A program made the translations under genes and the position numbers. Below the pieces are notes generated by a model. That model saw only the letters and a program-made list of their open reading frames with translations. It searched no databases and was not told the origin of the DNA. From the NCBI GenBank assembly GCA_037439425.1, contig JBBIWA010000014.1, positions 29,781-93,780 of the forward strand: a stretch of DNA of 64,000 nucleotides, written 5' to 3'. Below are positions 1,979-47,454 of the stretch, in pieces; the stretch's first letter is position 1; each line of letters starts with the position of its first letter. Origin of the DNA: Acidobacteriota bacterium. Its GTDB lineage: Bacteria > Acidobacteriota > Blastocatellia > RBC074.

Positions 1979-2561
1979 GGGCGCACATCTTTATTGTAGG
2001 GTGAAAAAGCAGTAAGGATCGGTGGTGAGCCCCGGAGGGGGCCTCAGATGATAGCGAGTCTGAGCCAGGGCGGGTGGGCCCAGGTCTGTAGAGCCTATTT
2101 ATAGAGCTCCAGCGCAGGAGTTTCTAGCTCCGTTAGGAGCGGCCTGTTTATAGCACGCAGCATTACACCTTTTTCAGCTCCGTTATGAGCGGCCTGTTTA
2201 TAGCAGGCGGCATCGCACGTTTTTCAGCTCCGTTATGAGCGGCCTATCTATAGCGATTCAGCTACGGATAGGAGCGAGCAGTCTAGAGCGACGTGATGCG
2301 GAAAGTTTTCAGCTCCGTTAGGAGCGGCCTGTTTATAGCAGGCAGCATTACACGTTTTTCAGCTGCGGTCAGGAGCGAGCTATGAGCAGCAATTGATAGG
2401 TCGCTCCTAAGCGCAGCTAGGCTTACTTTTCTTCACTGCTTGCTATAGACAGCTCGCCCCGGCTGGGGCTGGTGGGCGAGAGCTTCCTCTCCTCCGGCGC
2501 CCCTAGCGGGGCCAAGGCTTCAACCGATCTTCTTTTGACCCTACAATCGTGACGTGCACCC
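1979..2561. mobile_element. MITE-like non-autonomous element, copy 1 (583 bp): terminal inverted repeats plus a nested tandem-repeat insertion
   Basis: Left end is GGGCGCACATCtttattgtagggtgaaaaag and right end is cttttgaccctacaatcgtGACGTGCACCC, an 11-bp TIR (GGGTGCACGTC consensus) with subterminal attgtagggt/accctacaat. Flanked by near-identical 9-bp direct repeats aggcgtggt / aggcgcggt. No transposase ORF is present. Confidence 0.6.
2107..2420. repeat. Tandem array (about 5 units of 50-85 bp) of hairpin-forming units (consensus gtttttcagctccgttaggagcggcctgtttatagcaggcagcattacac) nested inside MITE copy 1
   Basis: The units are directly visible. Each contains the palindrome gctccgttaggagc. 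The terminal unit forms a long imperfect hairpin (gctgcggtcaggagcgagctat...ataggtcgctcctaagcgcagc). Confidence 0.65.
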
Positions 2562-2648
2562 AGGCGCGGTTCGAGTCTTTTATGACCCTAGACTTTGCTG
2601 TACCATATCTTGACCGGTGCAGAAACTAATAGCCTGCGCTCCCAGAAA

Positions 2649-2675
2649 AGCACGCTGGAAGCGTGCGTACCCAGG
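2649..2675. repeat. Inverted copy of the REP-like unit (agcacgctggaagcgtgcgtacccagg)
   Basis: Reverse complement of 1638-1664. Together the two copies bracket the MITE at 1979-2561. Confidence 0.7.
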
Positions 2676-2751
2676 AGCTGTTTGATTCGTACACACTCTC
2701 AATTGATTCTTCACTTTCTCTGTACCGCTTCGTAGCGATCTCAGGAGAGAC

Positions 2752-4198
2752 TATGAACCCAACTGTTCCCCCTTTCTTCACCGCTTTGAAAGCGCCCCTA
2801 TGGCTTGTGCTGGTCGTGCTGATGGGCGCTTGTGCCATCACTTCTGAGTCCACCTCACCCTCAGGAACTCCATCCACCAAAGATATGTCTGAAGCCAAAC
2901 TAATCACCCTCGACCCTGGTCACTTCCACGCCGCGCTGATTCAGAAAGAGATGTATCCTGGCCTGTCAAAAAGAGTATCAGTCTATGCGCCGCTGGGATC
3001 AGACCTGATTGCGCATTTGAACCGCATCGCGCTCTTCAATACGCGCCAAGATAACCCGACCGCCTGGGAGCTGGAAGTCCACACTGGCCCGGATTTCATG
3101 GAGCGAATGCTGAAAGAACGGCCCGGCAATGTCGTGGTCATTTCGGGTCGCAATCGCGGCAAGATTGACCGGATCAAAGCCTCGGTCGAAGCCGGCTTGA
3201 ACGTGCTGGCCGACAAGCCGTGGATCATCTCGGCGGCTGATTTTGCGACTCTGGAAGCGGCGCTCAAGCTGGCTGAACAAAAAGGTTTGATCGCTTACGA
3301 TATTATGACTGAGCGCTACGAGATTGCCACGATGATTCAGAAAGAGTTGATTCACGACCCGGATACCTTTGGCACGATTCTTCAAGGCACGGAAACAGAG
3401 CCAGCCGTGCAACTGGAAAGCGTGCATCACCTGATGAAGATGGTGGCAGGTGCGCCGAACATTCGCCCGGCCTGGTTTTTTGACATCGAACAGCAAGGTG
3501 AAGGCTTGTCCGACGTGACGACGCACCTGGTTGACCTGGTCCAGTGGAAGCTCTTTCCCGAACAGGCGATTGATTATCACAAAGAGATCAACGTGCTTTC
3601 AGCCAGGCGCTGGCCGACAGCCATCACCAGAGCCGAGTTCAAGCGCGTGACCAATACGGATGATTTCCCTGCTTATCTCTCACCCTATGTGAAAGGCGAT
3701 CGGCTTGAGTATTACTGCAATGGCACGGTCAATTACACACTGCGCGGTATTCACACTCAGGTGACCGTAAAATGGAACTACGAAGCGCCTGAAGGTGGCG
3801 GAGACACACACTATGCGGTCTTCAAAGGGAGCAAAGCACGCCTCGAAGTAAGACAGGGGAAAGAGCAAAAGTACCGGCCCGAACTCTACGTAGTGCCGAA
3901 TAATCCAGCTTCGACCAAGGAGCTTCTCATAGCTTTGAAGAAGAAGATCGCATCGTTGCAGTCGAAGTACCCTGGTATCGGCATCGCCGATCTAGGGCAG
4001 GAGATTCACGTCACGATCCCTGATCAATATTATGTCGGTCACGAAGCGCATTTTGCGCAGGTGACGAGCAAATTCCTGGACTATCTGCGCCATCGCGAAA
4101 CGCTGCCAGCCTGGGAGAATGCCAATATGCTGGCCAAATATTTCGTCACCACGAGAGCCGTGGAGCTAAGCCGGCAGACAGCAAGCTCCGGCAGGTGA
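2752..4198 (+). CDS. Putative secreted/lipoprotein oxidoreductase, Gfo/Idh/MocA-like with an oxidoreductase C-terminal domain
   Basis: The ORF (frame of 2663-4198) uses the internal start MNPTVPPFF. It has a signal/lipobox-like LMGAC, then [12 protein letters not shown]...[26 protein letters not shown] before the ATG at 2752. The family assignment is by recollection of the Oxidoreduct_C-type proteins. Confidence 0.55.
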
Positions 4199-4399
4199 CT
4201 TGGAGCGGCTGCAGATCAGCCGCACGTAGAATCTCACTTTCGGGTGACGAACGTGCCGGGCGGTTGCCAGGACAAAACCCACCTGGCCGGTGGCCTTGCC
4301 CCTCAGCGAAGCGATCAAGTAAGCTTGTAACGCAGAGGTTGCAGCCGGGCAGTGGCACCCTGATCAGAAGAGATCGTGTTGAAGGAAAGGATAGCCCCC

Positions 4400-6466
4400 A
4401 TGATCCAGCGGTCAATTCTGTTTCTCATCTTAATCGTTTCTCTGGCCTTCGCTGCCGACCGCCACCGCCGTGTGCCGACGGTTGACGACCTGCTGCTAGT
4501 CAAATCCATCGGCAGCGCGAACATCTCACCTGATGGCCAATGGGTCGCCTATACTGTGACCGAAACCGACTTTAAGCAAGATGCCTTCGTCACGCACATC
4601 TGGCTCGCCGACACACAAACAGGCCGCACCTTTCAACTCACGCGCGGCGAGAAATCCTGCACCAACCCACAATGGTCGCCTGCCAATGATCAAGGCCAAT
4701 GGCTCGCTTTCACAAGCAGCCGCGCTGGCGATAAGGATCAAATCTTTGTGATCCGGCCTGACGGTGGCGAGGCCAGGCAGTTGACCAAAACTGAAAACGG
4801 CGTAAGCAGCTTCGCCTGGTCGCACGATGGCAAAAGCATCGCCTTTACGGCTACTGAACCGACATCGCAGGCGATGAGGGAGCGCAAAGAGTATTTGGGC
4901 GATTACGAGGTTGTGCGCAAGGAATATAAACACGCGCACCTCTGGACGATCGAGCTGGCTGAAGCATTGAAAGAGCCAATCGTTGGGACGCAACGCACTA
5001 AAGGCACAGATCTCCATGTCAGCTCCTTCTCCTGGTCGCCCGACGGAAGGCGAATTGCTTTCAGCGCCACGATCAATCCCGATCTGATCAATAGCGGCAC
5101 GGCAGAGATATACCTGCTGAATTTGGCTGACAACTCGGTCCAGAAGATCGTTTCTCAACCTGGGCCGGACAACAACCCGCGCTGGTCGCCCGATGGCAAG
5201 CAGCTTATCTTTTCATCGGCGATGGGCAATCCGAAATACTATTACAGCAACTTGCGGCTGGCCGTGGTTCCGGTTGAAGGCGGCACGCCGCGTTCAATCA
5301 CGGATGGCTTCGATGAGCGACCTGGCTTCGTCGAATGGAATGCCGATGGGATCTATTTTTCGGGACTGCAAAAGACCGCTTCGCACCTCTTCCGCACCGA
5401 TGTGGCCAGCGGGCGCATCGTGCGCATCACGAGCCCTGATGATCTGATGGCCGGATCGTTCTCCTTCACGAAAGACGGAAAACAGATCGCTTTCATTGCT
5501 GCCTCGCCGACCTCACTGGGCGAGCTCTTCATCTCGCCGGTTTCAAACTTCGCGCCGCGCAAACTGACCGCGATGACCGATCAGGTCAAGGACTTTATCC
5601 TCGGCACACGCGAAGTCATTGCCTGGAAGAGTCGAGATGGAACGATCATCGAAGGGGTCTTGATCAAACCTGCCGACTTCGATCCATCGAAGAAATATCC
5701 GTTGCTGTGCATCATTCACGGCGGGCCAACAGGCATTGATCGCCCCACGCTGCTCGATGCGCGTTACTATCCGGTGGATATATGGGCTGGACGCGGCGCG
5801 CTGATTTTGAAGGTCAACTATCGCGGCAGCGCAGGCTACGGCGAAAGGTTCCGCCAGCTCAACTTCCGCAACCTCGGCATCGGCGATGCCTGGGATGTGC
5901 TCTCAGGCGTGGACTATTTGATCAGCAAGGGCTGGGTGGACCCGCAGCGAGTAGGTTGCATGGGCTGGAGCCAAGGCGGCTACATTTCAGCTTTTCTGAC
6001 GACTGCGAGCGATCGCTTCGCAGCCATTTCGGTCGGCGCGGGGATCTCAAACTGGGCGACCTACTACTACAACACCGATATCACGCCTTTCACGATTCAA
6101 TATCTCGGTGATGATCCGGTCGATGATCCTGAGATTTATCAAAAGACTTCGCCGATGTCCTACATCAAAAGAGCGCGCACACCGACTTTGATTCAGCACG
6201 GCGAATTTGACAGGCGCGTGCCGATTCCCAATGCTTATGAGTTGCGGCAGGGTCTGGAAGATCGCGGCGTGAAGGTTGAGATGATCGTCTATAAAGGCTA
6301 CGGCCACGGCATCACCAAACCTAAGTCCATGCGTGCGGTGATGCAGCACAATCTCGCGTGGTTCAATCATTACATCTTGGGCGATCCGCCGCCGGACTTC
6401 ACCAAGCCGGAATTACCGAAGAAAGAAAGCAAGGAAAAAGGGAAGGAAGTGGCTGGCAACCGATGA
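4400..6466 (+). CDS. S9 family serine peptidase (prolyl oligopeptidase/acylaminoacyl-peptidase type) with an N-terminal TolB-like beta-propeller
   Basis: Signal peptide, repeated WSPDG propeller motifs, a C-terminal alpha/beta-hydrolase with catalytic GWSQGG (GxSxGG) and a Y..GHG segment consistent with the catalytic His region. RBS GAAGGAAAGG before the ATG at 4400. Confidence 0.85.
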   Translation: MIQRSILFLILIVSLAFAADRHRRVPTVDDLLLVKSIGSANISPDGQWVAYTVTETDFKQDAFVTHIWLADTQTGRTFQLTRGEKSCTNPQWSPANDQGQWLAFTSSRAGDKDQIFVIRPDGGEARQLTKTENGVSSFAWSHDGKSIAFTATEPTSQAMRERKEYLGDYEVVRKEYKHAHLWTIELAEALKEPIVGTQRTKGTDLHVSSFSWSPDGRRIAFSATINPDLINSGTAEIYLLNLADNSVQKIVSQPGPDNNPRWSPDGKQLIFSSAMGNPKYYYSNLRLAVVPVEGGTPRSITDGFDERPGFVEWNADGIYFSGLQKTASHLFRTDVASGRIVRITSPDDLMAGSFSFTKDGKQIAFIAASPTSLGELFISPVSNFAPRKLTAMTDQVKDFILGTREVIAWKSRDGTIIEGVLIKPADFDPSKKYPLLCIIHGGPTGIDRPTLLDARYYPVDIWAGRGALILKVNYRGSAGYGERFRQLNFRNLGIGDAWDVLSGVDYLISKGWVDPQRVGCMGWSQGGYISAFLTTASDRFAAISVGAGISNWATYYYNTDITPFTIQYLGDDPVDDPEIYQKTSPMSYIKRARTPTLIQHGEFDRRVPIPNAYELRQGLEDRGVKVEMIVYKGYGHGITKPKSMRAVMQHNLAWFNHYILGDPPPDFTKPELPKKESKEKGKEVAGNR

Positions 6467-6471
6467 AGATC

Positions 6472-6530
6472 AACCACGAAGATCACGAAGACCATTTCCG
6501 CTCTTTGCGCGCTTCGGGTTCTTCGTGGTT
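6472..6530 (+). terminator. Stem-loop AACCACGAAGATCACGAAG...CTTCGTGGTT followed by ATTTT. Probable intrinsic terminator and member of a repeated hairpin family.
   Basis: The inverted repeat is visible. It lies in the 86-bp gap after the peptidase stop. A homologous element lies at 12854-12923. Confidence 0.5.
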
Positions 6531-6552
6531 ATTTTCCTAAGGAGATTTTCCT

Positions 6553-8184
6553 ATGACGACGATGATGAACACTCCGTTAACGATGCCAGTATTGATGGAT
6601 CGCGGGCCACTGCTGGCGCCCGAAGTTGAGATCGTCTCGAAGATGCGCGATCGGATCCACCGCTACACTTACGCTGAGTTGGGCCAGCGCGCGCGGCAAC
6701 TGGCCAAGGCGCTGACTAAACTCGGCGTCAAACAAGGCGACCGCGTGGCAACCTTTGCCTGGAACAGCTACCGGCATCTGGAGATCTATTACGCCGTGCC
6801 GTGCATGGGCGCGGTGCTGCATACGCTCAACCTCCGGCTCTCGGTCAGCGATCTCGAATACATCATCAATCACGCTGAAGATTCGGTCATCTGCGTGGAT
6901 CAAGAGCTGCTGCCGCTGCTGGAGAAGCTGGCCGGAAAGATTCCCACCGTCAAGCATTACATCGTGATGAGCGAGACAGAAGATTTTCAGACCAGCCTGG
7001 CTCCGGCGCACAGCTATGAAGCGTTGCTGGCAGCAGAGAAGCCTGATTTCACCTGGCCCACACTTGATGAGAATGCGCCGATGGGTTTGTGCTACACCAG
7101 CGGCACGACCGGCCACCCCAAGGGCGTGATGTATACGCATCGCTCGAACTATCTGCACACAGTCAGCTCCTCACTGCCCGATGCCTTGGGGCTGAGCCGC
7201 CACGACACGGTGATGGCTGTGGTGCCGATGTTTCATGCTAACGCCTGGGGCTTACCTTACATCTGCTGTATGAACGGCATCAAGCAGGTCTTCCCTGGCC
7301 CGACGATGGATGGAGCTTCGGTCTGTCAACTGCTGCAAGACGAAAAAGTCACCTTCACGGCAGGCGTGCCCACGATCTGGTTGGGGGCGATGGCCGAGTT
7401 GCAAGCCAACCCTGGCAAGTATGATATCTCGAGTTTGCGCGCGATGCTGTGTGGCGGTTCGGCTCCACCACGCCCCATGATCGATTGGTTTGAGACCAAT
7501 CTTGGCATCGAGTTCATTCACGCCTGGGGCATGACCGAAACCAGCCCTCTGGGCTGCGTCAATCACCTCAAACCGAAGATGAAAGACTGGCCTCACGAGA
7601 AGAAGCTGGATGTCAAACAGCGCGCCGGCATCGTCGCCCCTGGCCTTGAGATTCGCATCGTAGATGATGCCGGCAATGAGGTGCCGCACGATGGCACCAC
7701 CATGGGGCGCTTGCTGATTCGCGGCCCGTGGATCGCCAGCGCCTACTATAAAGACCCGGCGCCGGAGAAGTTCCCTGACGGATGGCTCGACACAGGTGAC
7801 ATCGCTACGCTCGATGCAGAGGGCTATATGGCAATTGCCGACCGCTCGAAGGACCTGGTCAAAAGCGGCGGCGAGTGGATCTCGTCAGTGGACCTGGAGA
7901 ACGCTATTATGGCCATCCCCGGCGTAGCTGAAGCTGCGGTCATTGCAGTCCATCATCCGAAATGGCAAGAGCGCCCGCTCGCCTGCGTCGTTCTCAAGCC
8001 GGGAGCCAGTGTGACCAAGCAGCAAATCCTCGATCACCTGGCCGGCCAATTCGCCAAGTGGTGGCTGCCTGATGATGTAGTCTTCATTGACGCGATCCCG
8101 AAGACCAGTGTCGGCAAGTTCGACAAGAAACTGCTGCGCCAACAATACGCCGATTACAAGCTGCCCACAGCCGCGGGAGCTTGA
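6553..8184 (+). CDS. AMP-dependent synthetase/ligase (long-chain or medium-chain fatty-acid--CoA ligase)
   Basis: AMP-binding motif [25 protein letters not shown] and a C-terminal K in [21 protein letters not shown]. Confidence 0.9.
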
Positions 8185-8258
8185 ACCCTGGTGGTTCTAC
8201 GGGCGTGTTTCGCTACGCAAGCCCTGCGGCGAGACACGCCCGTTGCCAGCAGTGCGCT

Positions 8259-11200
8259 TCACTGTCCGCTGACCGTCGCCGGCTTGACGTAAACCGCAGG
8301 CACGTTCTGATCACGCACCAGCTTATTGAAGGCAGGCAGCTCAGCGTTCATAACCTGCCTCAGCTTTTGCAACTGCGCGTTGATCTTACCGACCAGCTCA
8401 TTGTAGACCGCGATGGATTGATCGGTCGGAGCGGCGTCAGCGCTCGCCACCACGCCTGCCAGCGCAGCGAGTTTGTTGTTGAGCTTGATCGGGAAGTTGA
8501 GCGGGTCCTGATTACTCTGGTTTTTGGTCTGATAGAGCTCTTCCTCAATCGCCGTCAATTTGTCGTTGAGCGCTTTCCCGGCATCCACAATCGCCTTGCC
8601 ATTAGGCTGATCTTTGGCGCGTCTGGCGATCTCATCAACCTGTCTGCGCACGTCACGGATCTGGATGATCGCTTCGTGAGTCTCACTGAGCTTGTCGCGA
8701 ATTTTCAGAAGCAGATCGAACTGTTTGGCGAACTCAGCCTGAGTGGTGGCAAGGCGCGGGTCTTTTTTGACCTCAAAACTCTCAGTCAGGCTCTTGCCGC
8801 CAACGGTGAGCCGGACTTGATAGGTGCCCGGCACAGCGCGGGGCCCTTGTGTATTGCCAGCCCACATAATCAGACCGGGGAACCTGGTGGCAGCTGGATA
8901 CCTGAAGTCCCAGATGAAGCGATTCAAGCCAGCTTCAGCAGGTAGCCGGCTGGGCCCGCCGCCACGGAAGAAAAATTCTTCTTCACCGGATGGCGGCCCA
9001 GATGGTTCGTCAACGGCTTTACTGCTAAACTTTTTGACCAGCTTGCCAGCGCTATCGAGGATCTCCAGCGTGAGCTCACCTTCCGGTTTGTTCTTCAGGT
9101 AATAAAAGATCACTGCCCCGTTGGGTGGATTTTGCCCTACGACAGCAGTGGGCGGCAACTGGAAGCCACCGCCGCCCATCCGGTAAGCGTCCTCCGGTTT
9201 GAAGAGATGCGCTTCGGCTCTGGCTATCGCATCTGACATCTGATGCAACACCGGCAGGTCATCGAGGATCCAGAAGGAACGCCCTTGCGTGGCGAGGATC
9301 AGGTCTTTTTCACGCTTGTGTACTGCGATGTCGGTGATCGGTACAACCGGCAAATTGTTTTGCAGCGAGACCCAGTTTTCACCATCATCGAACGAGACGT
9401 AGATACCAGTCTCAGTGCCCGCATAGAGCAAGCCGCGGCGATGCGGGTCAGCGCGGATCACGCGCGTGAAAGCATCTTCAGCAATGCCGTTCACGATCTT
9501 CTTCCACGTCTTGCCGTAATCGTTGGTCTTGTAAAGGTAGGGCTTGTAATCGTCCCACTTGTACATGGTGGCGGCAATGTAAGCTGTGCCCGCCTCATGC
9601 GGTGAGGCTTCGATGGAATTGATTTGGATCCATTCTGGGATCTCTTTCGGCGTGACATTCTCCCACTTCTTGCCGCCATCGCGTGTGACGTGCACCAGAC
9701 CGTCATCTGAACCAACCCAGATCAAGCCCTTCTGCAAGGGTGACTCCATGAGGGTGAAGATCGTGCAGTAATACTCGATGCTGGTATTGTCTTTGGTGAT
9801 CGGGCCGCCGGAAGGGCCTTGTTTGGATTTGTCGTTGCGCGTCAGGTCGGGGCTGATCACTTCCCAGCTCTGACCTTCATTGGTGGACCTGTGCAACACA
9901 TTGCTTGCGGCATAAAGCGTGCTCGCATCGTGGGGCGAAAAGACTATCGGGAAATTCCACTGGAAGCGATACTTCAATTCCGCCGCGCCCCAGCCCATCG
10001 GATTATCAGGCCAGGGGCTGACGTTACGCAACTGTCCGGTGCGATGATCGTAGCGTGTGATCAGGCCGCCATAAGAGCCTGCAAAGACGATGTTAGAATC
10101 CTTCGGGTGCGGCGCAATCCAGCCACTTTCACCGCCGCCCACAGCGTGCCAGTGCGTGCGGTCAATACCGAAGTCAACCGTGCGACTCGGAATCTTAACA
10201 GTTGAGTTGTCCTGCTGCGCGCCGTAGACGTGATAGGGGAAATCATTGTCCACGATGACGCGATAAAACTGCGCCGTCGGTTGATCCTGCGCGGTCCAGG
10301 TCCGGCCACCATTGAACGAAACATTCGCGCCACCATCGTTGCTGTTGATCATGCGCAGCGGATCGTTCGGCGCAATCCACAGATCGTGATTATCCCCATG
10401 TGGGACGCTGATGGTCGTGTAGGTGCGCCCACCATCGGTGGACTTGTAGAAGCCGGTGTTGAGCACATAGACCGTGTCAGCGCTCACCGGATCAGCATAG
10501 ATGCGCGTGTAGTACCAGGCGCGCTGCCGCAGTCGCCGCTCCTGATTGACGCGCGTCCAGCTCAGGCCACCATTGTCCGAACGAAAGACGCCGCCGTCTT
10601 CAGCTTCAATGATGGCCCAAACACGCTCTGGATTAGCCGGAGAAACCGTGATACCGACTTTGCCAATGAGGCCTTTGGGCAGGCCGGGATTGCGCGTCAA
10701 TTCAGTCCAGGTATCGCCGCCATCGGTGGATTTGAAGATGCCGCTGCCGGGACCGCCACTCTCCAGCGTGTAAGGCGTGCGATAGACCTCCCAGAATCCA
10801 GCATAGATGATATTGGGATTAGTTGGGTCCAGGATCAGATCGACTGCGCCGGCCTTGTTGCTGCGATAGAGGACCTTCTCCCAGCTCTTGCCGCCATCCC
10901 TGGTGCGAAAGACGCCGCGCTCTTCATTTGGCCCCCAGACATGGCCAAGTGCGGCAACATAGACGATGTGGGGATTGCGCGGATGGACGCGCACACGACC
11001 GATCTGGCGGGTCTCTTTCAAGCCAACGTGCTTCCACGTCTTGCCCGCATCCATTGATTTGTACACCCCATCGCCGTGCGAGACGTTGCCGCGGATGGGC
11101 ACTTCGCCCATCCCGACGTAGATGATGTTGGGATCAGATTCAGCTACCCCAATAGCTCCGACTGAACCGGTGCCAAACTGCCCATCTGAAACCGGGAACC

Positions 11201-11471
11201 AATTCATTCCGCCATCAGTCGTCTTCCAGACACCGCCGCCGCAGGCGCCAAAGTAATAGACCATAGGTTGTGAACTGACACCGGCGACAGCCGTTACGCG
11301 CCCGCCGCGATACGGGCCGATGCTGCGCCACTGCAGCGATTTGAGGATCTTTCCTGTTTCAGATGCTGATTGCGCCTGGACTGACAGCCACGAAAGGCTG
11401 ATTGCGAGGCTCAGCATCAACAGCGAAATGAGAACTGCTGGACGTTGAATAAAGCGTTGAAATCTCTTCAT
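8259..11471 (-). CDS. Large secreted BNR/Asp-box repeat protein (sortilin/VPS10- or GH74-like beta-propeller) with a C-terminal coiled-coil region
   Basis: Signal peptide [33 protein letters not shown]. Multiple S-x-D-x-G-x-T-W Asp-box motifs ([40 protein letters not shown]). The start is chosen at the internal Met of the 1103-aa ORF. Confidence 0.8.
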
Positions 11472-11486
11472 GGTGAATTCTCCTAC

Positions 11487-11588
11487 GGAAAATCCCGGGT
11501 GCGCACGCTTCTGAGCGCCTTCTTCTACATTAAGCAACCCGTGATCAGAGACCGGGCGCGCCAGAGGCATGTACCCAGGATATTTTTA
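11487..11588. repeat. REP-like element fragments (ggaaaatcccgggtgcgcacgcttctgagcgcc ... catgtacccagg) in the intergenic region
   Basis: Shares the gaaaatcc(t/c)gggtRcgcacgc core with the copies at 1638, 12606 and 41032. Confidence 0.5.
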
Positions 11589-12605
11589 TCACTTATGCGA
11601 AATCACTACCTGTTCCAAAGTGGGCGGCAGAGGGTGAAATTCACTGCGTGCAAATCCGGCGTTGGCAAACATTCGTTCGTACTCCGCAAAAGTGTAAGCA
11701 TCTCCGCTCGGGGTCGTACCTAGCATGATCATGGCGAAAGCAGCCGCACTGGGCGGGCTGATCCGGTCTTCATTGGGAATAAAATCGAGCGTGACGGCGC
11801 GCCCGCCCTCAGCGAGTGCCGCGTGAACCTTCCTGAGCACCTTCTCGCAAGTGGCCATATCGAAGTGGTGCAAAAAGTTGGTCAGGAAGACCAGATCATA
11901 GCCGCTGCCCAGATCTACTTCAAAGGCGCTGCCGGCAATGGTGCTGAAGCGATGGCTTATGCCGGCAGCTTTGGCGTTCTCTTTAGCCACCTCGAGCACA
12001 TTGGCCCAATCCAGCGCGACTACTTCAGCCTTCGGATGATGCTGGGCAAAGGTGATCCCATACATGCCGTGACCGGCGGCGATATCGAGCACCCGCCATC
12101 TTCGAGCAGGGTCGCCCCTGAGAAGCTTGACCAACTCTTGAGCCGGCAACCTGGCCACCGCAGCCATGGAACGCGCGAACTTCACCCAGATGGGATTTTC
12201 GGCTGAGACGGTGCCCTCTTCAGCTATCACCGTCCCGCCTTTGCGCACCGCAGCCGTCAACTCTTTGAACCCATCGGTCAACATAGGCGAGAGCAAGAAT
12301 TCGATCGCCGAACCCAGGTAAGAAGGAGAACGCCGATCGAGAAACATCGCCGTGTCTGGAGTCAGACGGTAGCGATGATCTTCCTTGATCAGAAAGCCAA
12401 TAATGGTCAGGTAATCGCACAAGATGCGCGTGCCACGTTCAGAAGCTGCGCATCTGGCGGCGATCTCTTGAGCCGTCGCATTCCCTTCGCCGATGGCGGT
12501 AAAGAGATTTAACTCGATGGCTGCTTTGATCGCAGCGGTTCGGATGTGGGCATTAACCGTATCGAAGAATAATGCGGGTGAAAGCTCCGCAATCTGGCTA
12601 GGCAT
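11589..12605 (-). CDS. Class I SAM-dependent O-methyltransferase (family 2 O-MT, CrtF/hydroxyneurosporene-OMT-like)
   Basis: Dimerisation-like N-domain plus VLDIAAGHGMYGITFAQHHPKAEVVALDWANVLEVAKENA, the SAM-binding motif I/post-I pattern. Confidence 0.8.
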   Translation of the reverse strand: MPSQIAELSPALFFDTVNAHIRTAAIKAAIELNLFTAIGEGNATAQEIAARCAASERGTRILCDYLTIIGFLIKEDHRYRLTPDTAMFLDRRSPSYLGSAIEFLLSPMLTDGFKELTAAVRKGGTVIAEEGTVSAENPIWVKFARSMAAVARLPAQELVKLLRGDPARRWRVLDIAAGHGMYGITFAQHHPKAEVVALDWANVLEVAKENAKAAGISHRFSTIAGSAFEVDLGSGYDLVFLTNFLHHFDMATCEKVLRKVHAALAEGGRAVTLDFIPNEDRISPPSAAAFAMIMLGTTPSGDAYTFAEYERMFANAGFARSEFHPLPPTLEQVVISHK

Positions 12606-12850
12606 CTGACTCCTGCGGAAAATCCTGGGTATGCACGCATCCTTGCGTGCTCATTGGAGCTGAAAATCTTGCACGCTAGATCAGCGTGCGTACCCAGGCT
12701 TAGAAAATCTCTGGGAGCGCATGCATCCTTGCGTGCCTGTCTTCGTCGAGTAGGCTATTACCGAAGACCAAGCACGCTAGAAGCGTGCGCTCGTGAGGGT
12801 TTCATCATCTCAGGGCGCCGTCGAAGACGACATGAAAGACTCCTCTGAAA
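12606..12850. repeat. REP/BIME-like structured repeat cluster (about 170-bp unit, about 1.5 copies)
   Basis: Contains gaaaatcctgggtatgcacgcatccttgcgtgc, gaaaatcttgcacgctagatcagcgtgcg and tttcatcatctcagggcgccgtcgaagacgac. The same modules occur in the same order at 41032-41450. Confidence 0.7.
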
Positions 12851-12853
12851 GGG

Positions 12854-12923
12854 AACCACGAAGGCCACGCAACGTCACGAAGAGAGGCAGATGATCTTTG
12901 TTTGCTTCGTGATCTTCGTGGTT
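12854..12923. repeat. AACCACGAAG...CTTCGTGGTT stem-loop element followed by TATTTGTTTC (second copy of the 6472-6530 hairpin)
   Basis: aaccacgaaggccacgcaacgtcacgaag...cttcgtgatcttcgtggtt. The terminal arm is the reverse complement of the 6472 element. Confidence 0.55.
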
Positions 12924-13204
12924 TATTTGTTTCTGCTGCGCCGTCCGTGACGGCCTGAACGACTTCTCTGAAAATAAACTACCAAGAACCGAACCTCAGA
13001 CCCCCGACCAATAAGAGGTCTGAGGTCTGAATCTCTTTGCTTATCTGGCATCAGGTCTGGTATATCTTAAGTCCGTTGTCACGATTGAGCAACGCTTCAA
13101 GCGCACACGGATGAGACAGAGCAAACTGATCTCGACGAGCCGCTGCTGCGGCGTCGCATCAGCTTCATCTGTTTCATCCGTCTTTTATTCAGAGGTAGTA
13201 AGAA

Positions 13205-14179
13205 GTGATCACTAAAATCATTCCGCTCGGCACCAGTTCAGGCAAACCGACGCTCACGCGCAATGTCAGCGCCACGGCTATCTTGGGCGAGGGCGAGTGG
13301 TGGTTGTTTGACTGCGGCGAAGGTACGCAGATGCAGATTGTGCGCGCCGGACTGTCGTTTCATCGTCTGGCGGGAATTTTTATCACGCATCTGCACGGCG
13401 ATCATTTCAACGGGCTGGCTGGCCTGCTCTCCACGCTCGGCCTTAATCAGCGAGAGCATGAGCTAACGCTGGTCGGTCCGCCCGGCCTTGGCGAGTACCT
13501 TGACCTGGTCCGACGGTTGCGGATTTTGTATCTCAATTTTCCGCTCCGTCTGCGCGAAGTGAGCCAAGCGGATTTCGGTACCGGAAGCAGCGATGAAGGT
13601 TTGCCCGGCAATCCGCTGCTCGTTTATGAGTCGGAGAAATATACAGTGATCACGCTGCCGCTCGATCATCGCCTCTTCGCGCTGGGCTATCGCGTCCAGG
13701 AGCGAACTCGTCCGGGGCGGTTTAATGTCGCACGAGCGCGTGAGCTGGGCATTCCCGAAGGCCCGCTCTATGGACAGTTGCAGCGCGGCTTTGACATTCG
13801 GCTTCCTGATGGTCGCGTCATTCATCCTTCAGATGTGCTTGGCCCACCGCGTCCCGGCAAAGCGGTAGCCTATTGTCTTGACACACGCCCCTGCGCCAAT
13901 GCGGTTGAGCTGTCACGCCAGGCCCACTATCTGATTCACGAAGCGACTTACACGGAAGACTTGATTGATGAAGCGCACCTCTATGGCCATTCGACTGCGG
14001 CGCAGGCGGCGCGCACCGCTCGCCTGGCTGGAGCCGAGCGTCTGTTGATTACTCATTTCAGCTCGCGCTTCCCTGATGCCAAGCCGTTGCTGGCTGAAGC
14101 CCGCGCCATCTTCCCCGCCACCACTATGGCGGAAGAGCTGGTGGAGATAGAAGTAAAGGTAGAGCATCGCCATGGATGA
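13205..14179 (+). CDS. rnz: Ribonuclease Z (tRNA 3' endonuclease), metallo-beta-lactamase fold
   Basis: [12 protein letters not shown] (the HxHxDH motif) and the N-terminal pattern typical of short-form RNase Z. GTG start. Confidence 0.85.
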
Positions 14180-17479: not shown

Positions 17480-17910
17480 CTGAAGAAGCGGCCAGTCGGC
17501 CTCAGATATATCTTCACTACAAGGAAGCTGAGAAAGCATCACAGCCACGCCAGCACATCCCAGCCCTCGACGGCCCGGCCTGACTCAACCACTCTGCTCA
17601 CACCACAGCCCAACCTACTCCGATAACGCAACCGCAGGGAAAGGTAAATAGACGGCGGCCGCTCAAACTTTTCTTGTGATAGTGACCGAAGCGAACGTCT
17701 TCCTAGCTTCACTTCAGATTGACGCCAAGCTCGACTTGATATTTTGGGTCTTAAGAAATAACGACAGGTCGTGGAAGCTGAAGACTAATTTTTCAGGGAG
17801 CTACTCTCTGCCACCACTGCCCGTCGAGTTGCTGCCACAACGGGGCAAGAGCCCTGCTTGTCACAGGAGTCAGCTCCAGGCATTGATTGAGAGATCGCTC
17901 TGTTCCGTCA

Positions 17911-18150
17911 GTAGCGGCCTATCTATAGCGTTCAGCTACGGATAGGAGCGAGCTATGAGCAGCAATTGATAGCTCGCTCCTAACCGCAGCTAGGCTTACT
18001 TTTCTTCACTGCTTACTATAGACAGGTCGCCCCGCTGGGGCTGTAGGAACGCGTGTCGGACGTTTTTCAGCCGCGGTCAGGAGCGAGCAGTTGATAGCAG
18101 GTAGCAGTGCACATTTTTCAGTTCCCTTAGGAGCGGCCTATCTATAGCGA
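17911..18150. repeat. Second copy of the tandem hairpin-repeat module (tttttcagc..cg.t.aggagcg units), here free-standing and not inside a MITE
   Basis: The sequence ggcctatctatagcgttcagctacggataggagcgagctatgagcagcaattgatagctcgctcct closely matches units at 2220-2420. Confidence 0.6.
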
Positions 18151-18362: not shown

Positions 18363-18435
18363 TGAGCCGTGCAGGAATCGAACCTGCGACCCTCTGGTTA
18401 AAAGCCAGATGCTCTACCAACTGAGCTAACGGCCC
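18363..18435 (-). tRNA. tRNA-Lys (anticodon TTT)
   Basis: Reverse complement gggccgttagctcagttggtagagcatctggcttttaaccagagggtcgcaggttcgattcctgcacggctca folds as a cloverleaf. Anticodon loop cuUUUaa. The 7-bp acceptor stem GGGCCGT/ACGGCTC. CCA is not encoded. Confidence 0.85.
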
Positions 18436-29426: not shown

Positions 29427-30029
29427 ATGTCTATCGCGATCATTGATTACGGGGTCGGGAACCTGCGCAGCGTGGAGAAAGCATTCACCTCGCAAGGCAT
29501 CCCGGCAGTGGTAAGCAGCGACGAGAAAGTTCTGCGTGCGGCAGACAAGTTGGTGCTGCCCGGCGTAGGCGCATTCGCAGCGTGCATGCAGGGGCTGCAA
29601 GAGCGCGGCTTCGATGAGCTGGTGATCGCAGCCGCTAACTCAGGCAAGCCCATCCTCGGGCTGTGCGTTGGCTTGCAGATGCTCTTTGATGAAGGGCAAG
29701 AGTTCGGCCTGCATCGCGGGCTGGGCCTGTTGCCGGGCCGTGTGGTGCGCTTTCCTGAAGGCGTGCGCGTGCCGCACGTCGGCTGGAATCAGGTCGCTAT
29801 CAAACGCCCTCATCCGATCTTCCGCGACCTGCCTGATCAATCATTCTTCTACTTTGTGCACTCCTACTACGTTGAACCGGTGGACGAAACGTGTGTGCTC
29901 GGTGAAACCGAGTATGAATCTTGCTTCGCTTCCATCTGCAGTCGCGGCAGCGTGATCGGTGTTCAGTTCCATCCAGAGAAGAGCCAAACGGCAGGATTGA
30001 AGTTACTCAGAAATTTTGCCGAGCTGTGA
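29427..30029 (+). CDS. hisH: Imidazole glycerol phosphate synthase, glutamine amidotransferase subunit
   Basis: MSIAIIDYGVGNLRSVEKAF N-terminus, catalytic GLCVGLQ Cys and a C-terminal HPEKS triad region. Confidence 0.9.
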   Translation: MSIAIIDYGVGNLRSVEKAFTSQGIPAVVSSDEKVLRAADKLVLPGVGAFAACMQGLQERGFDELVIAAANSGKPILGLCVGLQMLFDEGQEFGLHRGLGLLPGRVVRFPEGVRVPHVGWNQVAIKRPHPIFRDLPDQSFFYFVHSYYVEPVDETCVLGETEYESCFASICSRGSVIGVQFHPEKSQTAGLKLLRNFAEL

Positions 30030-30048
30030 CTGGCAAGAGAGCTTTGCT

Positions 30049-31035
30049 ATGACAAAGAGCAGCCTGATGCTCCCAGTCTTGCTTGCCCTCCTAGCTGGCT
30101 TATTCGGCGCGCAAAAGCCAGAGAGAGAGCCAGGCAGATTGTTTCCTGTTATTCAGAATGACCTGTGGGGCTATATAGATCGAACGGGGAAGATCGTCAT
30201 CCAACCGCAATTCGACAGCGCTGGGGACTTCTCCGAAGGGCTGGGGCGCGTCTCTCTTGATGGCCAGTGGGGTTATGTAGACAGAAGCGGGCGGATCGCT
30301 ATCAAACCACAGTTTGATGACTATGCCGGCGACTTTTCCGGCGGCTTGGCGCTGGTACGAATTGGCGGCAAGTACGGTTACATTGATCAGACAGGGCAGC
30401 TCGTTATCAAACCGCAATTCGATGAGGCACTGAACTTTTCTGAACACTTTGCCCCTGTCCGGATCGGCTCCAAGTGGGGCTACATTGCCAAAACCGGCGG
30501 TGTGATCTTCCAGCCACAGTTTGACCGTGCTGAAGTCTTCTCCGAAGCTCTGGCAGCGGTACAAATTGAGGGTAAAGAAGGCTACCTGGATAAAACGGGG
30601 AAGCTTGCCATCAAACCTCAGTTTGATTTTGCTGGGAATTTCTCCGAAGCGCTGGCCCCGGTGCAGATCGGTGATCGGTGGGGCTATATTGACCGGACCG
30701 GAAGAATCGTCATTGGGCCTCAGTTTGACGACGCGGGAAATTTTTCCGAAGCGTTGGCCTCAGTGCAGATCGGCGGCAAGTATGGCTACATTAACAAAGC
30801 GGGGCAAAGAGTCATCGCTCCGCAATTTGATCTTGCCGAGGCCTTTTCCGAAGGTCTGGCACGCGTGCACAGGGGCGACCAATGGGGCTACATTGATAAG
30901 AGAGGAAAGATCCTCATCGAGCCACAATTTGATCAGGCGGGCGACTTCTCCGGAGGGCTGGCACGTGTGGAGCTGGATGACAAGGTGGGCTACATTGACC
31001 AAAGAGGAAAGTTTGTGTGGCCGCTCTCAAACTAG
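30049..31035 (+). CDS. WG-repeat (KWG/WGYID) beta-propeller-like secreted protein, about 10 tandem repeats of about 30 aa
   Basis: Signal peptide, then the repeating unit xQFDxAxxFSEGLAxVxxxxKWGYIDxTGKxVIxP about 10 times. Confidence 0.75.
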   Translation: MTKSSLMLPVLLALLAGLFGAQKPEREPGRLFPVIQNDLWGYIDRTGKIVIQPQFDSAGDFSEGLGRVSLDGQWGYVDRSGRIAIKPQFDDYAGDFSGGLALVRIGGKYGYIDQTGQLVIKPQFDEALNFSEHFAPVRIGSKWGYIAKTGGVIFQPQFDRAEVFSEALAAVQIEGKEGYLDKTGKLAIKPQFDFAGNFSEALAPVQIGDRWGYIDRTGRIVIGPQFDDAGNFSEALASVQIGGKYGYINKAGQRVIAPQFDLAEAFSEGLARVHRGDQWGYIDKRGKILIEPQFDQAGDFSGGLARVELDDKVGYIDQRGKFVWPLSN

Positions 31036-31101
31036 GGCTGTCACGGCGCCCTCTCAGAAAGGCCATGAAAATCGCCGAGCCACTCTCCCTATCTTCTCAA
31101 A

Positions 31102-31530
31102 CTAGGGCTGTAGCGGCGCCTCTTCAGAAAGGTGTGCCACCCCTTCCATCTCGATCAAGGCCTCGTTATTGAAAAGGCTCTTGACCTCGAAGAAAGCCAT
31201 CGCCGGGTAATGATCGCCAAAGTAAGTGCGATGGATTTTGCCCAGTTCGCGCAGGTGAGCCAGATAAGCAGCGCGATCCGTCACAAAGATGTTGAGCTTG
31301 ACGATGTTGGTTAATCGGCCGCCGGCTGCTTCAACCACAGCTTTGAGGTTCTTGATCACCTGTTCATACTGCGCTACCAGATCGCCCGGTGAGGCGATCT
31401 TTCCTTCCCGGTCGCTACCATCTTGCCCGGCCAGAAACAACAATCGTCCAGGACCGCTAACTAGAATGCCGTGACTAAATCCGCGCGGCGGCACCAGCTC
31501 TGATGGATTGATCACTCGTTTGTCACTCAT
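31102..31530 (-). CDS. RidA/YjgF family reactive-intermediate deaminase
   Basis: About 140 aa with RidA-family blocks (NIVKLNIFVTD, ...MEGVAHL). The start overlaps the crotonase stop (ATGA). Confidence 0.8.
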   Translation of the reverse strand: MSDKRVINPSELVPPRGFSHGILVSGPGRLLFLAGQDGSDREGKIASPGDLVAQYEQVIKNLKAVVEAAGGRLTNIVKLNIFVTDRAAYLAHLRELGKIHRTYFGDHYPAMAFFEVKSLFNNEALIEMEGVAHLSEEAPLQP

Positions 31531-32321: not shown

Positions 32322-32425
32322 TCAATCCTCAATTCATCTCTTGGGGAGACCCACATCTTGCGTGTTTATCTTCAGTCAATGACCTGCTAGGGAAAAGCAG
32401 GCACGCTCCCCGGCGTGCCTCTCAA

Positions 32426-38266: not shown

Positions 38267-38612
38267 CATAAAGAGCCTCCTTGTTAGTTGTCGGGGATGA
38301 GCCTGGCAGATAAGCTTTCGGCAACTGCACACCACAGAAAGTGACCTTGTCAGAGTATAAGCACCGAGTGGGATTCTATGATTGCGCTCGCAGATAAGTC
38401 AATGATGATGGCAGTTCTCAAACAGGCCCGGCCTTGATCTTGCCAGGGCAGGTACGCGTCTTGCGCGCTAGACTTGAGACCAGATCAACTCATCCGGCAG
38501 GGGCCGAGCGAACTCTTGTGGGCCAAAGAGCTATGCTGCTTGATCCACTCCCCTCTCCCACTACTCTCAGCGCGCCTCCCGCGCGAGTACCCAGGGAGGC
38601 TGGAAATCTATC

Positions 38613-40484: not shown

Positions 40485-41031
40485 TTACCCAGCCTGCTGC
40501 TCGGCCAGGTCGCCAATCACTGGAAGCTTGAAGCGCTCGTTTTGATAAGCTTTGTACATCAGGTACAACCACAACAGAAAGCCGCCCAGGCTGACTGCCA
40601 AAAAAATCAAACTGCCCAAAAATCCCAGCCCCCAGGGAAGCACACTTGAAATGATTGAGCTGGCGATTACCAACACAATCCAGGCCACGTGAAAGAAGAT
40701 CGCTTGAAAAGCGTGAAACCGCACAAACCGGTCTTTGTTATACGGATCCAGCACCAAGAAAACGATGCCAGTAATCAATCCGAGCACATAGCAAAGCAAG
40801 CCGGCAATATTCGGTTGCAAGCCGCCAGCCGATGCTTGACCTTGATATTGTGGGTACTGATATCCCGGCGGTGATTGGTATGACGGTGGCGTTTGATACG
40901 GTGGTGGTGGTGTAACGACAGGCGCTTCCTGCGGCGGCTGAGTCGGAGTAACGGCCGCTCCGCATTTATTACAGAATCTCGCGCCCTCGACCGTTAAGGG
41001 GTTTCCGCAATGGATACAGAATTTGGGCATA
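40485..41031 (-). CDS. Zinc-ribbon domain membrane protein with a DUF4870-like multi-TM C-terminus
   Basis: CIHCGNPLTVEGARFCNKCG zinc ribbon, PPPYQTPPSYQSPPGYQYPQYQ linker, then the TM region LCYVLGLITGIVF...FVRFHAFQAI typical of DUF4870. AAGGAGAAGACCT RBS before the ATG at 41031. Confidence 0.7.
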
Positions 41032-41450
41032 GGTCTTCTCCTTAGAAAATCCTGGGCAGGCACGCATCCTTACTTGCCTGCCTTCGTTAAGCAAGCCATT
41101 ACTGGAGACCGATCACGCTAGATCAGCGTGCTTGCCCGCGCGCTGCGCGCAAGCAGGCGCTCCAAGTTTTTCATCATCTCAGGGCGTCGTCCGTGACGAC
41201 CTGCAAGACTCCTGCGGAAGATCCTGGGAGCGCACGCATCCTTGCGTGCTCGCCTAGTTAAGAGTGAAAATCTTGCACGCTCGCAAGCGTGCGCTCCTAG
41301 GTTTTCATCATTTCTCCCGTGTCGTCCGTGACGACCTGCAAGACTCCCGCGGAAAATTCTGGGTACGCTGCCCGTCTTGCCTGCAAAGCATTTTCGTGGC
41401 TCTCGGGGCGTCGTCAAAGACAAGGTGTAAAAACTCCCCAGAAAATGCCA
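41032..41450. repeat. REP/BIME-like structured repeat cluster (about 2.3 tandem copies of an about 170-bp unit), homologous to 12606-12850
   Basis: Units start with gaaaatcctggg/gaagatcctggg/gaaaattctggg. Each carries the hairpins GCACGC-atcctt-GCGTGC, GCACGCT-N5-AGCGTGC and GTCGTCcgtGACGAC. Confidence 0.7.
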
Positions 41451-42195
41451 GGCCAAGCGGTTAGTTGGCACTTGTCTCCTGCGAAACCAGGTGTGGCGTA
41501 AGTTGCCAACTGGCGCTCCAGTATTTTCATTCTTCGGTGCATGCACTTGCCTGCGCGCCGCGCGCAAGCAGGTGAGCACTGCGCAGACGTTAGTTTGACA
41601 AGGTCTCAAAGATTAAAGTGTAAGCCAAGCACCTGTCACTCGCTGACCTGAGGGATCTGCCTGTACAGACTCAGGATGAGCCTAAATGATCAATTCGGGA
41701 TTGTCAACGTCTGTGGCCCTAGCAGATTGAGCTGATCGGCTGCGGCCCACAGTCGGTGCGCCAAGCAGAACTTGGTAGGCATCAAGCAGCTAACCTTATT
41801 TCGATTCGCTACCAGAGGTCTCATCAGGTCTGGCCTGTTATTGAGCAGACAGACTCGAAGAGTCACCACTTTCTCACCACCCGCCTCGCTGCAGCGGCCA
41901 GGCAGAAGCATTGGTCCGAGCCCCAATCAGGTTACATCCCCCTGCGACTGGCCCACTACTGATCGGCAAAGCTTCTCCTGAGAGGGTAGAAATCTCTTCT
42001 CCTTTCAGAATCAGGTACCACAAGCAGAAAAATCTCTTCTCTACTCTCACCTTGATTATGCGCCCAATTCGGCCTCTGCACTCTTTGTGTTGCAATAGTC
42101 GATAAGCCGTTTTTCGTGCAAAATCTGGGTGAGAAGATAAGATTAGGAGAGGAGCCTGGAGTATAAACTGAACATCTGTATTCCATCTAATCGCT

Positions 42196-42732: not shown

Positions 42733-42966
42733 GGGTGCACGTCTTTATTGTAGGGTGAAAAAGCAGTAAGGATCGGTGGTGAGCCCCGGTGGGGGCATCA
42801 GATGATAGCGAGTCTGAGCCAGCGCGGGTGGGTCCAGGTCTGGAGAGCCTAAGGCCAGCCCCGGCCGGGGCTGGTGGTGGGCGAGAGCTTTCTCTCCACC
42901 AGCGCCCCTAGCGGGGCTAAGGCTTCAACCGATCTTCTTTTGACCCTACAATCGTGACGTGCACCC
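42733..42966. mobile_element. MITE-like element copy 2 (234 bp) with perfect 11-bp TIRs GGGTGCACGTC and 9-bp target-site duplication GCCCACAGC, inserted just upstream of tRNA-Pro
   Basis: Left end is gcccacagc|GGGTGCACGTCtttattgtagggtgaaaaag. Right end is cttttgaccctacaatcgtGACGTGCACCC|gcccacagc. The internal sequence is about 90% identical to the arms of the 1979-2561 copy. Confidence 0.7.
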
Positions 42967-43049: not shown

Positions 43050-43124
<75 letters not shown>

Positions 43125-46042: not shown

Positions 46043-46737
46043 TGAGTCACCGCCACCCCTGGAGTCGGCTGCTCACCAGCGCCAATCACCCCGGTGCCAT
46101 AGGGGGCATTGTACTTGCTGCCGCAGGTCAGAATAGTGCCTCAACTGCTACAGAGTTGGTAGCTATTAGGGGTCAGCTTTCAGCTTGTAGCAAGACCACT
46201 ACCAGAACGACGTTGAAAGAGCAGTAGCCAATGACTGACAGCGACACTGCTCCCAGTGAGTTTTATTACTGAATGGAAAAACTATTGACTCGAACCCAAA
46301 ATTCAAATGCGAGCTCGTCAGTAGTTCCTGGAATAAGCCGGTTGTCTAAGACTTCCTGACGCTGGTTCGAGGGTGAACTCTAGCAGTGCATACCTGATAC
46401 GATGTTAGCGGCGCCCGTTGAATAGTGAGGATCAACCGCCAGGGGTTTCAGGCAAGGGCGATTATACATGGCTGAGTGAGACACTTCAACATGATTTCCA
46501 AACAGTCTCAGCAGCGGGGTGCAACTAAAAACGGGACGAGACCGCAACAGCTTGCCCTCACGAGCGCACGCTTCTAGTGCACCTAACTCGTGCCCTCCCA
46601 CAGCACGTAAGATGCGTGCGCTCCCAGGACCAGTCCCACTTTCAATTGCACCTTCGGCGGCAGCTTCTCTGAAGGACTGAAGACAGGCGTGGCCGCGCTG
46701 ATGGTGGTTGGCCGGGCCAACGGAAAGGGCGTCGAAA

Positions 46738-47244: not shown

Positions 47245-47454
47245 TTTTATTCTCCCTGCAGAGACTTTACCAGATGGTCCAGCTGAGCGCAATTGAGAGA
47301 GAGAAAGTTCTCGCTGAAACAGCTACCGAAATTGTTACCCCCAAGCTATAATCACTGTCGGCTTCCGATGGGAAGCGAAAAACCAAATTGAAAGGTAGTT
47401 GTTAGATTCGGCGCCTCACCTACCAAATCACCAGCAATCAGTTCCAGACGCTTC

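Follow-up and report, generated by a model that had tools for sequence, protein, structure and literature searches.

A probable REPIN-type repeat family of Blastocatellia (Acidobacteriota) at gene boundaries and beside RAYT genes

The closest described counterparts of the repeats presented here are the REPIN-RAYT systems of Pseudomonas fluorescens and Enterobacteria (PMC3116915, PMC5581495) in which, as here, an inverted REP doublet gives one long hairpin. E. coli REP/BIME sequences with TnpA-REP (REPtron; 4ER8) share with our repeats a palindrome of 20-40 nt whose 5′ foot is unpaired, and IS200/IS605 elements (IS608, ISDra2) share the same transposase superfamily and the lack of a target-site duplication. 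In the survey by Di Nocera et al. 2013 (PMC3733652), GTAG repeats came from Proteobacteria, Cyanobacteria, Chloroflexi and the PVC group, and Acidobacteria contributed only Y1 genes with long flanking TIRs (TIRYTs). Quentin et al. 2018 (PMC6006769) list for Acidobacteria a TnpA-Y1 of class 3 whose hairpins are atypical. For Acidobacteriota, the searchable literature contains only Y1 genes, with either long TIRs or hairpins of atypical form, and no REP family of high copy number, and we found in it no description of the repeat family reported below.

The repeats lie in a 64-kb stretch of DNA from an Acidobacteriota genome, analysed as a whole and hereafter called the window. They are in all probability REPs arranged as REPINs (inverted doublets, each forming one long hairpin) that belong to a Blastocatellia/Pyrinomonadaceae (Acidobacteriota) family. 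This family is a fresh example of a long-known kind of element and not a new kind; its anatomy, its dispersal, its link to RAYT in relatives and the absence of target-site duplication are already demonstrated.

Anatomy and census of the repeats

The window census combined pattern searches for GGG-N3-GCACGC-N5-7-GCGTGC with a profile (HMM) search, in which the near-palindromic element matches on both strands. With up to 2 mismatches the motif CCTGGGTRCGCACGC has 10 matches in the 64-kb window against 0.37 expected, a count reached by 0 of 100 shuffles, and the ten matches are spread over seven intergenic loci; the longer core GAAAATCCTGGGTRCGCACGC, with up to 3 mismatches, has 4 matches (11488, 12618, 41045 and 41217) against 0.01 expected. 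The original prediction had listed several related copies sharing one core and an ordered set of hairpins. Reading the sequence together with the motif counts confirmed all of those copies, and the three hairpins it named were all found (GCACGC-N6-GCGTGC, GCACGCT-N5-AGCGTGC and GTCGTCcgtGACGAC). The core is indeed enriched, but its 'gaaaat' part is missing from the copy at 1638, and the copies at 46557-46628 and, in decayed form, at 32342-32424 had been overlooked.

A palindrome of 24-27 nt, CCTGGG-nnn-GCACGC-ATCCTT-GCGTGC, is present in each copy as an inverted doublet, and a REP amounts to an 18-nt hairpin plus a 9-nt foot. The order in a good copy is foot CCTGGG-nnn, hairpin GCACGC-ATCCTT-GCGTGC, a 20-40-nt spacer, second hairpin GCACGC(T)-loop-(A)GCGTGC and foot nnn-CCCAGG, and the three variable foot bases change jointly on both sides (TAT/GTA, AGC/GCT, TAC/GTA). 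As single strands, the units of 75-90 nt each take the form of one long hairpin, with fold energies of -39.7 to -62.2 kcal/mol and z from -2.0 to -4.7 among window units. Window doublets are heterodimers rather than exact inverted copies, since their second REP has another loop (AGATC, TCGCA). Feet read GGGTAC, GGGTAT, GGGCAG or GGGTGC in the window and GGGAGC in most other genomes; the classical GTAG tag 5′ of the stem is not present, the foot being at best GTAG-like (GTAC, GGAG) with three varying inner bases.

Pairing from arm to arm over 27 bp holds in 91.8% of cells, and 7 pairs are altered on both sides; no shuffle equals the observed share of cells paired or the covariation score, and every slid control is lower. 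This covariation expresses palindromy and is no proof of selection on RNA structure, because inverted duplication of one REP variant yields an equal signal. The spacer ends add nothing to the pairing (the terminal 10 nt on either side pair at least as well with permuted partners), and spacers of the long type carry internal hairpins of their own.

The doublet is nested in a larger repeated unit that reads, on the minus strand, GTCGTCACGGACGAC hairpin - GCCCTGAGATGATGAAAA - doublet - ATTTTCCGCAGGAGTC, with outer arms that are imperfectly complementary (GACTCCTGCGGAAAAT ... TTTTCATCATCTCAGGGCGTC) and with the small linker hairpin included. Units repeat in tandem, every 86, 135 or 172 nt, and decay more with distance from the gene. 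The size of about 170 bp given in the original prediction fits only one such unit, and the basic unit is the 75-90-nt inverted doublet. Linker modules are confined to the 12.8-kb and 41.2-kb loci, and alternating REP variants and conserved linkers occur in the window clusters. Two candidate readings of the linker were rejected: by eye CUGAGAUGAUGAAA resembles a hammerhead, but it has no stem II and no Rfam match, and a small ORF in the linker has reading frames that vary among copies.

The array at 12606-12990 is the most complete example. Its outer arm, at 12606-12623 on the minus strand, reads ATTTTCCGC-AGGAG-TCAG followed by the ATG of an O-methyltransferase gene, AGGAG being the complement of 12610-12614. 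Next to it lies a first REPIN at 12624-12698 (foot CCTGGGTAT; HMM E = 1.6e-12; fold -39.7 kcal/mol, z = -3.6), composed of the hairpin GCACGC ATCCTT GCGTGC at 12633-12650, a 20-nt spacer, the hairpin GCACGCT AGATC AGCGTGC at 12671-12689 and the foot GTACCCAGG. A second one spans 12710-12798 with REPs at 12719-12736 (GCATGC ATCCTT GCGTGC) and 12772-12788 and a decayed outer foot (GCTCGTGAGG); it has E = 8.5e-19 and a fold of -62.2 kcal/mol (z = -4.65), and its 35-nt spacer is homologous to spacers in other genomes. The linker module follows at 12799-12852, with TTTCATCATCTCAGGGCG, a small hairpin (CGTCGAAGACG) and a second GACTCCT arm, and is common to 41169-41220 at 83% identity. In the degenerate third unit (12853-12990) the linker scaffold is kept and a different inverted repeat (AACCACGAAGG / CTTCGTGGTT) takes the place of the REP doublet. 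A scan of 12500-13300 returned no promoter-like site, and its terminator-like sites are weak. Beyond the array, a 24-nt inverted repeat (13107-13181, 83% complementary) lies just upstream of a metallo-beta-lactamase-fold gene at 13205.

A decayed REPIN is found at 11494-11579 (E = 4.7e-9, fold z = -2.8), and a second array occupies 41031-41575 upstream of a zinc-ribbon/DUF4870 gene. The latter holds REPINs at 41051-41140 (E = 2.7e-16) and 41223-41301 (1.6e-14) with a linker after each, then a REP remnant at 41352-41384 and progressively degenerate units to about 41575. A second G+C-rich palindrome (CTTGCCYGCGCGCYGCGCGCAAGCAGG) stands at both ends of this array (41131-41157 and 41546-41572), with a weaker match at 61153-61179. 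Another decayed REPIN, at 46557-46628, has the opposite orientation, lies about 110 nt 3′ of the stop of the minus-strand gene 46738-47292 and is without the AGGAG arm. A REP-like singlet on the minus strand at 38570-38595 has the variant stem GGGTAC TCGCGC GGGAG GCGCGC, and 32342-32424 is a probable decayed REPIN with a weak score (E = 7e-5) and a first hairpin that is now terminator-like.

At 1638-1665 on the plus strand, a REP with foot (CCTGGGTAC GCACGC TTCCA GCGTGC) is the left arm of an inverted pair whose right arm, at 2648-2675 on the minus strand, is about 78 nt upstream of an oxidoreductase gene start. The partner that had been proposed for this copy is real: the two arms, of 28 nt each, are perfectly inverted repeats of one another and stand 982 nt apart. 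ORF 1476-1667 (63 aa) is by eye a DUF1501-like gene fragment that ends inside the REP at 1638-1665, the remainder being missing, which suggests a repeat-associated deletion or rearrangement. Between the arms lies a separate MITE-like element (1978-2562) with 30-nt terminal inverted repeats (TGGGCGCACATCTTTATTGTAGGGTGAAAA, 80% complementary) and an internal 50-nt tandem repeat at 2121-2254. A role of the repeats as IS/MITE target sites is not supported, because this MITE is not inserted in any REP and sits 312 and 85 nt inside the flanking ones. A short 234-bp copy of the MITE-like element is found at 42733-42966, just upstream of the tRNA gene 43051-43124, and related pieces at 17899-18149 beside the tRNA gene 18363-18435.

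The window holds two further repeats. Seven copies with a 102-nt period at 30159-30961, inside ORF 30016-31035, look by eye like WG/KWG-type beta-propeller protein repeats and not like a nucleotide element, and a 38-nt direct repeat (31025-31062 / 31095-31132, 87% identical, 70 nt apart) lies between convergent genes.

Gene boundaries and the AGGAG-bearing outer arm

The original prediction placed several copies within 1-2 nt of minus-strand start codons. Shared sequence does approach three such starts, at 12603-12605, 11469-11471 and 41028-41030, although at a distance of 3-8 nt. The genes downstream are unrelated: the O-methyltransferase (11589-12605), a BNR/sortilin gene and the zinc-ribbon/DUF4870 gene (40485-41030, minus strand). 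Divergent genes enclose the region of 599 nt that holds the 12606-12990 array, and 3-4 nt separate this array from the O-methyltransferase ATG; for the 41031-41575 array the distance to the zinc-ribbon/DUF4870 ATG is 7 nt. The gap from the O-methyltransferase stop (11589-11591) to the BNR/sortilin start (11469-11471) measures 117 nt and is almost filled by the decayed REPIN at 11494-11579.

All three loci read CCCRGG-ATTTTC-N2-3-AGGAG-N4-8-ATG on the minus strand, so that the AGGAG of the outer arm stands 4-8 nt before the start codon in the same orientation each time. At the BNR/sortilin locus the arm gives AGGAG (complement of 11480-11484) 8 nt before the ATG, and at the zinc-ribbon/DUF4870 locus AAGGAG is the complement of 41038-41043. 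The outer arm GACTCCTGCGGAA[A/G]AT is also present at 41205 and 41340, where it adjoins no gene. AGGAG is part of the repeated unit, because the ATTTTCCGCAGGAGTC arm is also found at internal array positions without an adjoining gene, and copy-to-copy similarity ends just past AGGAG (AGGAGTC at 12606) at the three unrelated genes.

We speculate, as a rather doubtful proposal, that the element may itself supply a ribosome-binding site through the Shine-Dalgarno-like AGGAG of its outer arm (ATTTTCCGC-AGGAG-TC). If true, an element-borne ribosome-binding site would explain how an insertion almost at a start codon survives; translation would then initiate next to a 75-90-nt hairpin, and REPIN-borne initiation regions would be dispersed modules of post-transcriptional control. 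A start-plus-SD signature was seen at 13 of 115 outer ends in other genomes, against 2.5% of random 40-mers, with no fixed spacing. As for the extended arm, a first metagenome scan returned no copies and a second returned 2 loci, one of them from the same species as L022. A family-wide rule by which the element targets Shine-Dalgarno sequences was considered and rejected: 4-mers complementary to SD occur within 25 nt of cluster ends in 19% of cases versus 16% at random. AGGAG adjoining start codons is the sole feature that we judge worth experiments.

This placement could also point to a cis-regulatory leader RNA (riboswitch, attenuator or thermometer) whose tandem aptamer-like units control the downstream minus-strand genes. 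Three copies do end 4-8 nt before starts in one orientation with AGGAG at the edge, and the folds are stable. We nevertheless hold such a leader to be highly improbable: the genes downstream have nothing in common, the near-palindromic element matches both strands, one copy is reversed and lies 3′ of a gene, clusters in other genomes abut stops as often as starts, and the same sequence flanks a transposase gene. Nor is there an Rfam family for it. At gathering scores only two tRNAs reach threshold in the whole window, and in E-value mode the two main loci match MIR2084 alone, with 20-29 bits against a threshold of 100 and on both strands, which is generic long-hairpin noise. Within the REPIN reading, transcribed copies would form long hairpins in 5′ leaders or between cistrons and so influence mRNA stability or translation.

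Relatives, RAYT genes and possible turnover

An exact scan for the 24-nt motif GGGNNNGCAYGCATCCTTGCGTGC, with one genome per species, returned at least 61 loci in at least 17 assemblies. Among the matches listed, 16 of 17 species-level MAGs are labelled Acidobacteriota, mostly Blastocatellia/Pyrinomonadaceae; the sole non-acidobacterial one listed is a single exact REP (L007 7446-7481) in a MAG labelled Candidatus Cloacimonadales, where mis-binning or chance is possible. The matches listed include 48 doublets, every one of them '+ then -' (head-to-head), of the form C[CT]GGGAGC-GCACGCATCCTTGCGTGC-spacer-GCACGCAAGGATGCGTGC-GCTCCC[AG]G and in two size classes, short (about 70 nt) and long (about 116 nt). 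Window units align with these REPINs of relatives, the 35-nt spacer included.

Among the listed loci, 49 of 54 REP clusters fall outside ORFs as drawn by a crude gene caller. By the same crude caller, they lie between co-directional, convergent and divergent genes in 39, 8 and 2 cases against a background of 236, 59 and 52, and are thus depleted between divergent genes. Cluster ends come within 30 nt of start codons in about 25 of 66 cases and of stop codons in about 23 of 55. In L005, for instance, a stop plus 1 nt is followed by the cluster and then by 8 nt and an ATG, and L028, L002 and L022 give further boundary examples. Starts and stops being abutted alike, the position at boundaries comes from short spacers being filled rather than from a rule on 5′ leaders. 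The original prediction was hence correct in placing the repeats precisely at gene boundaries but not in tying them to 5′ leaders, the reversed copy at 46557-46628 being a case within the window itself. Two loci, L028 6702-6842 and L061 1665-1805, carry tandem arrays of 39-nt period (one REP and a 21-nt spacer, four times); the L028 array ends in a full doublet with an ATG 9 nt further. These arrays are not CRISPR-like, because their spacers are identical.

The RAYT gene that was to be sought elsewhere is found in relatives, where the same REP flanks it in L017, L047, L067 and L068. In L017 the gene (3504-4094) lies between two REPINs, one on each side, and its product shows the motifs NHVH, WQ and YIENNPV. 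It scores 24.8 bits against Pfam Y1_Tnp (cut-off 23) and 76.3 bits against NCBIfam REP_Tyr_transpos (E = 2.1e-21), just below the curated cut-off of 80, and the one PDB entry that it matches, E. coli TnpA-REP (4ER8), aligns with it at both the HUH and the Y motif. The L047 homologue (85% identical) also adjoins a REP, the L067 homologue (84% identical) is preceded by a REPIN and followed, where its contig ends, by a REP, and the contig of the L068 homologue (at least 84% identical) begins inside a REP. Two of these four RAYTs (L067 and L068) were fetched by protein similarity alone and are therefore independent of the repeat. RAYTs of 60-66% identity have other hairpins in their flanks, GGAGCGC-ggcc-GCGCTCC in L063 and GCAGGCA-ggt-TGCCTGC in L065, so that the REP sequence tracks the RAYT lineage.

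This protein family counts 6898 homologues at E ≤1e-20, with the JGI label 'REP element-mobilizing transposase RayT', and two close Logan-derived homologues, P0005 and P0011, come from other samples. In the 64-kb window itself tblastn gave no RAYT match, and the sequence between the 1638 and 2675 arms shows no similarity to a RAYT remnant; the window genome is itself absent from the 61 loci listed. From the distribution of the copies we infer that a RAYT in the window genome mobilises them.

Flanks of the repeats show no excess of direct repeats (3.80 observed against 3.67 +/- 0.13 permuted), and hence no target-site duplication, and do show an excess of inverted complementarity (5.13 against 4.03 +/- 0.21). 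This result bears on whether the repeats are a MITE derived from a DDE-transposase IS, with CCTGGGTAC-GCACGC... as terminal inverted repeats and 1638-2675 as a longer member. The perfect 28-nt inverted repeat that brackets about 1 kb, and the short copies with inverted termini, would suit that origin. It is nonetheless highly unlikely: the duplication is missing, every terminus is itself a hairpin, the one transposase found with these repeats in its flanks is a Y1/RAYT, and between the 1638 and 2675 arms there is no DDE transposase but an unrelated MITE and sequence without Pfam match. It is the REP/BIME reading that is supported by the flanking RAYT with identical repeats, the lineage-dependent hairpins and the absence of target-site duplication. 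In agreement with that original assignment, the doublets are head-to-head and intergenic, and the tandem clusters have BIME-like conserved linkers.

Copies may also turn over. L005 is syntenic with window 31.1-34.8 kb at only about 75% identity, and between these two genomes its four-REP cluster (2782-2932) corresponds to the weak decayed doublet at the orthologous window site 32342-32424; no REPIN flanks the L045 orthologue of the O-methyltransferase. At 32342-32424 the first hairpin with its T-run resembles an intrinsic terminator, and this could be a REP turned into a terminator.

By a further alternative, the repeats are immobile host palindromes (terminators, RNA-stabilising hairpins, gyrase- or IHF-type sites) that were selected and multiplied by local duplication only. 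The 24-nt sequence is exactly conserved across many species, some stems are terminator-like and local tandem duplication is clear. On the other hand, the sites are non-orthologous among genomes and orthologous sites appear to differ in presence and absence, most hairpins have no T-tract and the sequence co-varies with the RAYT lineage. We regard immobility as very improbable, although the reading is not exclusive, since REPs can be both mobile and exapted for host functions. Each of the rival explanations is contradicted by several results.

For mobile REPs we propose the following course, by analogy with TnpA-REP and IS200/IS605 enzymes. REPs and REPINs would be non-autonomous and mobilised by a host-encoded RAYT, an HUH-Y1 enzyme of the IS200/IS605 superfamily, which would recognise the single-stranded DNA hairpin with its 5′ foot (GGGAGC or GGGTAC here) and excise and reinsert the element without target duplication. 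Copies would pile up where tolerated, in short spacers between stop codon and ribosome-binding site and upstream of genes, and local duplication would turn them into BIME-like clusters that later decay. In the window genome the mobile or duplicated unit is larger than the doublet and includes the outer arms and the linker hairpin.

Repeats of this kind also affect assemblies. L001 (window 2534-12645; Logan, short-read) is the sole other public contig with this O-methyltransferase, 100% identical. Both of its ends fall inside repeats, so that assemblies of this lineage are broken up by them. The family thus accounts for broken contigs when these organisms are assembled from short reads, and it is a possible marker for binning and strain typing.

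Comparison with known systems

These results widen the range of REP/REPIN-RAYT systems to Blastocatellia, an abundant and little-studied soil lineage of Acidobacteriota, and the exact 24-nt motif in at least 16 acidobacterial species-level genomes adds a case for long vertical persistence of REPIN-RAYT pairs. With the REPINs of Pseudomonas and Enterobacteria our family has in common dozens or more extragenic copies per genome without target-site duplication, a Y1/HUH RAYT flanked by the same repeats, REPs that change with the RAYT lineage and persistence across a whole bacterial clade. Unlike them, it belongs to Acidobacteriota (Blastocatellia), has another sequence, many heterodimers and unlike loops, carries extra conserved outer arms and a linker hairpin, and has its RAYT known from relatives.

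E. coli BIMEs resemble the window clusters in being mosaic, with alternating REP orientation and conserved linkers, between cistrons or after genes. They are bound by IHF, gyrase or Pol I, and the comparison of the present family with them covers the arrangement of REPs and linkers. Its foot is GGGAGC or GGGTAC and not GTAG, its sequence is unrelated to Y/Z REPs, and several window copies lie directly upstream of starts and not downstream of genes.

In the GTAG super-family (PMC3733652), too, head-to-head dimers dominate, repeats lie mainly between unidirectional and convergent genes and some families are found inside longer palindromes. In contrast to the TIRYTs of the same survey, the present family is of true REP type in Acidobacteriota, without a strict GTAG. 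The subterminal hairpins of IS200/IS605 elements (IS608, ISDra2) are recognised as single-stranded DNA, a property that our repeats would share by analogy. They differ from these elements in carrying no transposase, the RAYT being a separate and presumably single-copy gene, and in having, in other genomes, no fixed target motif at the element ends.
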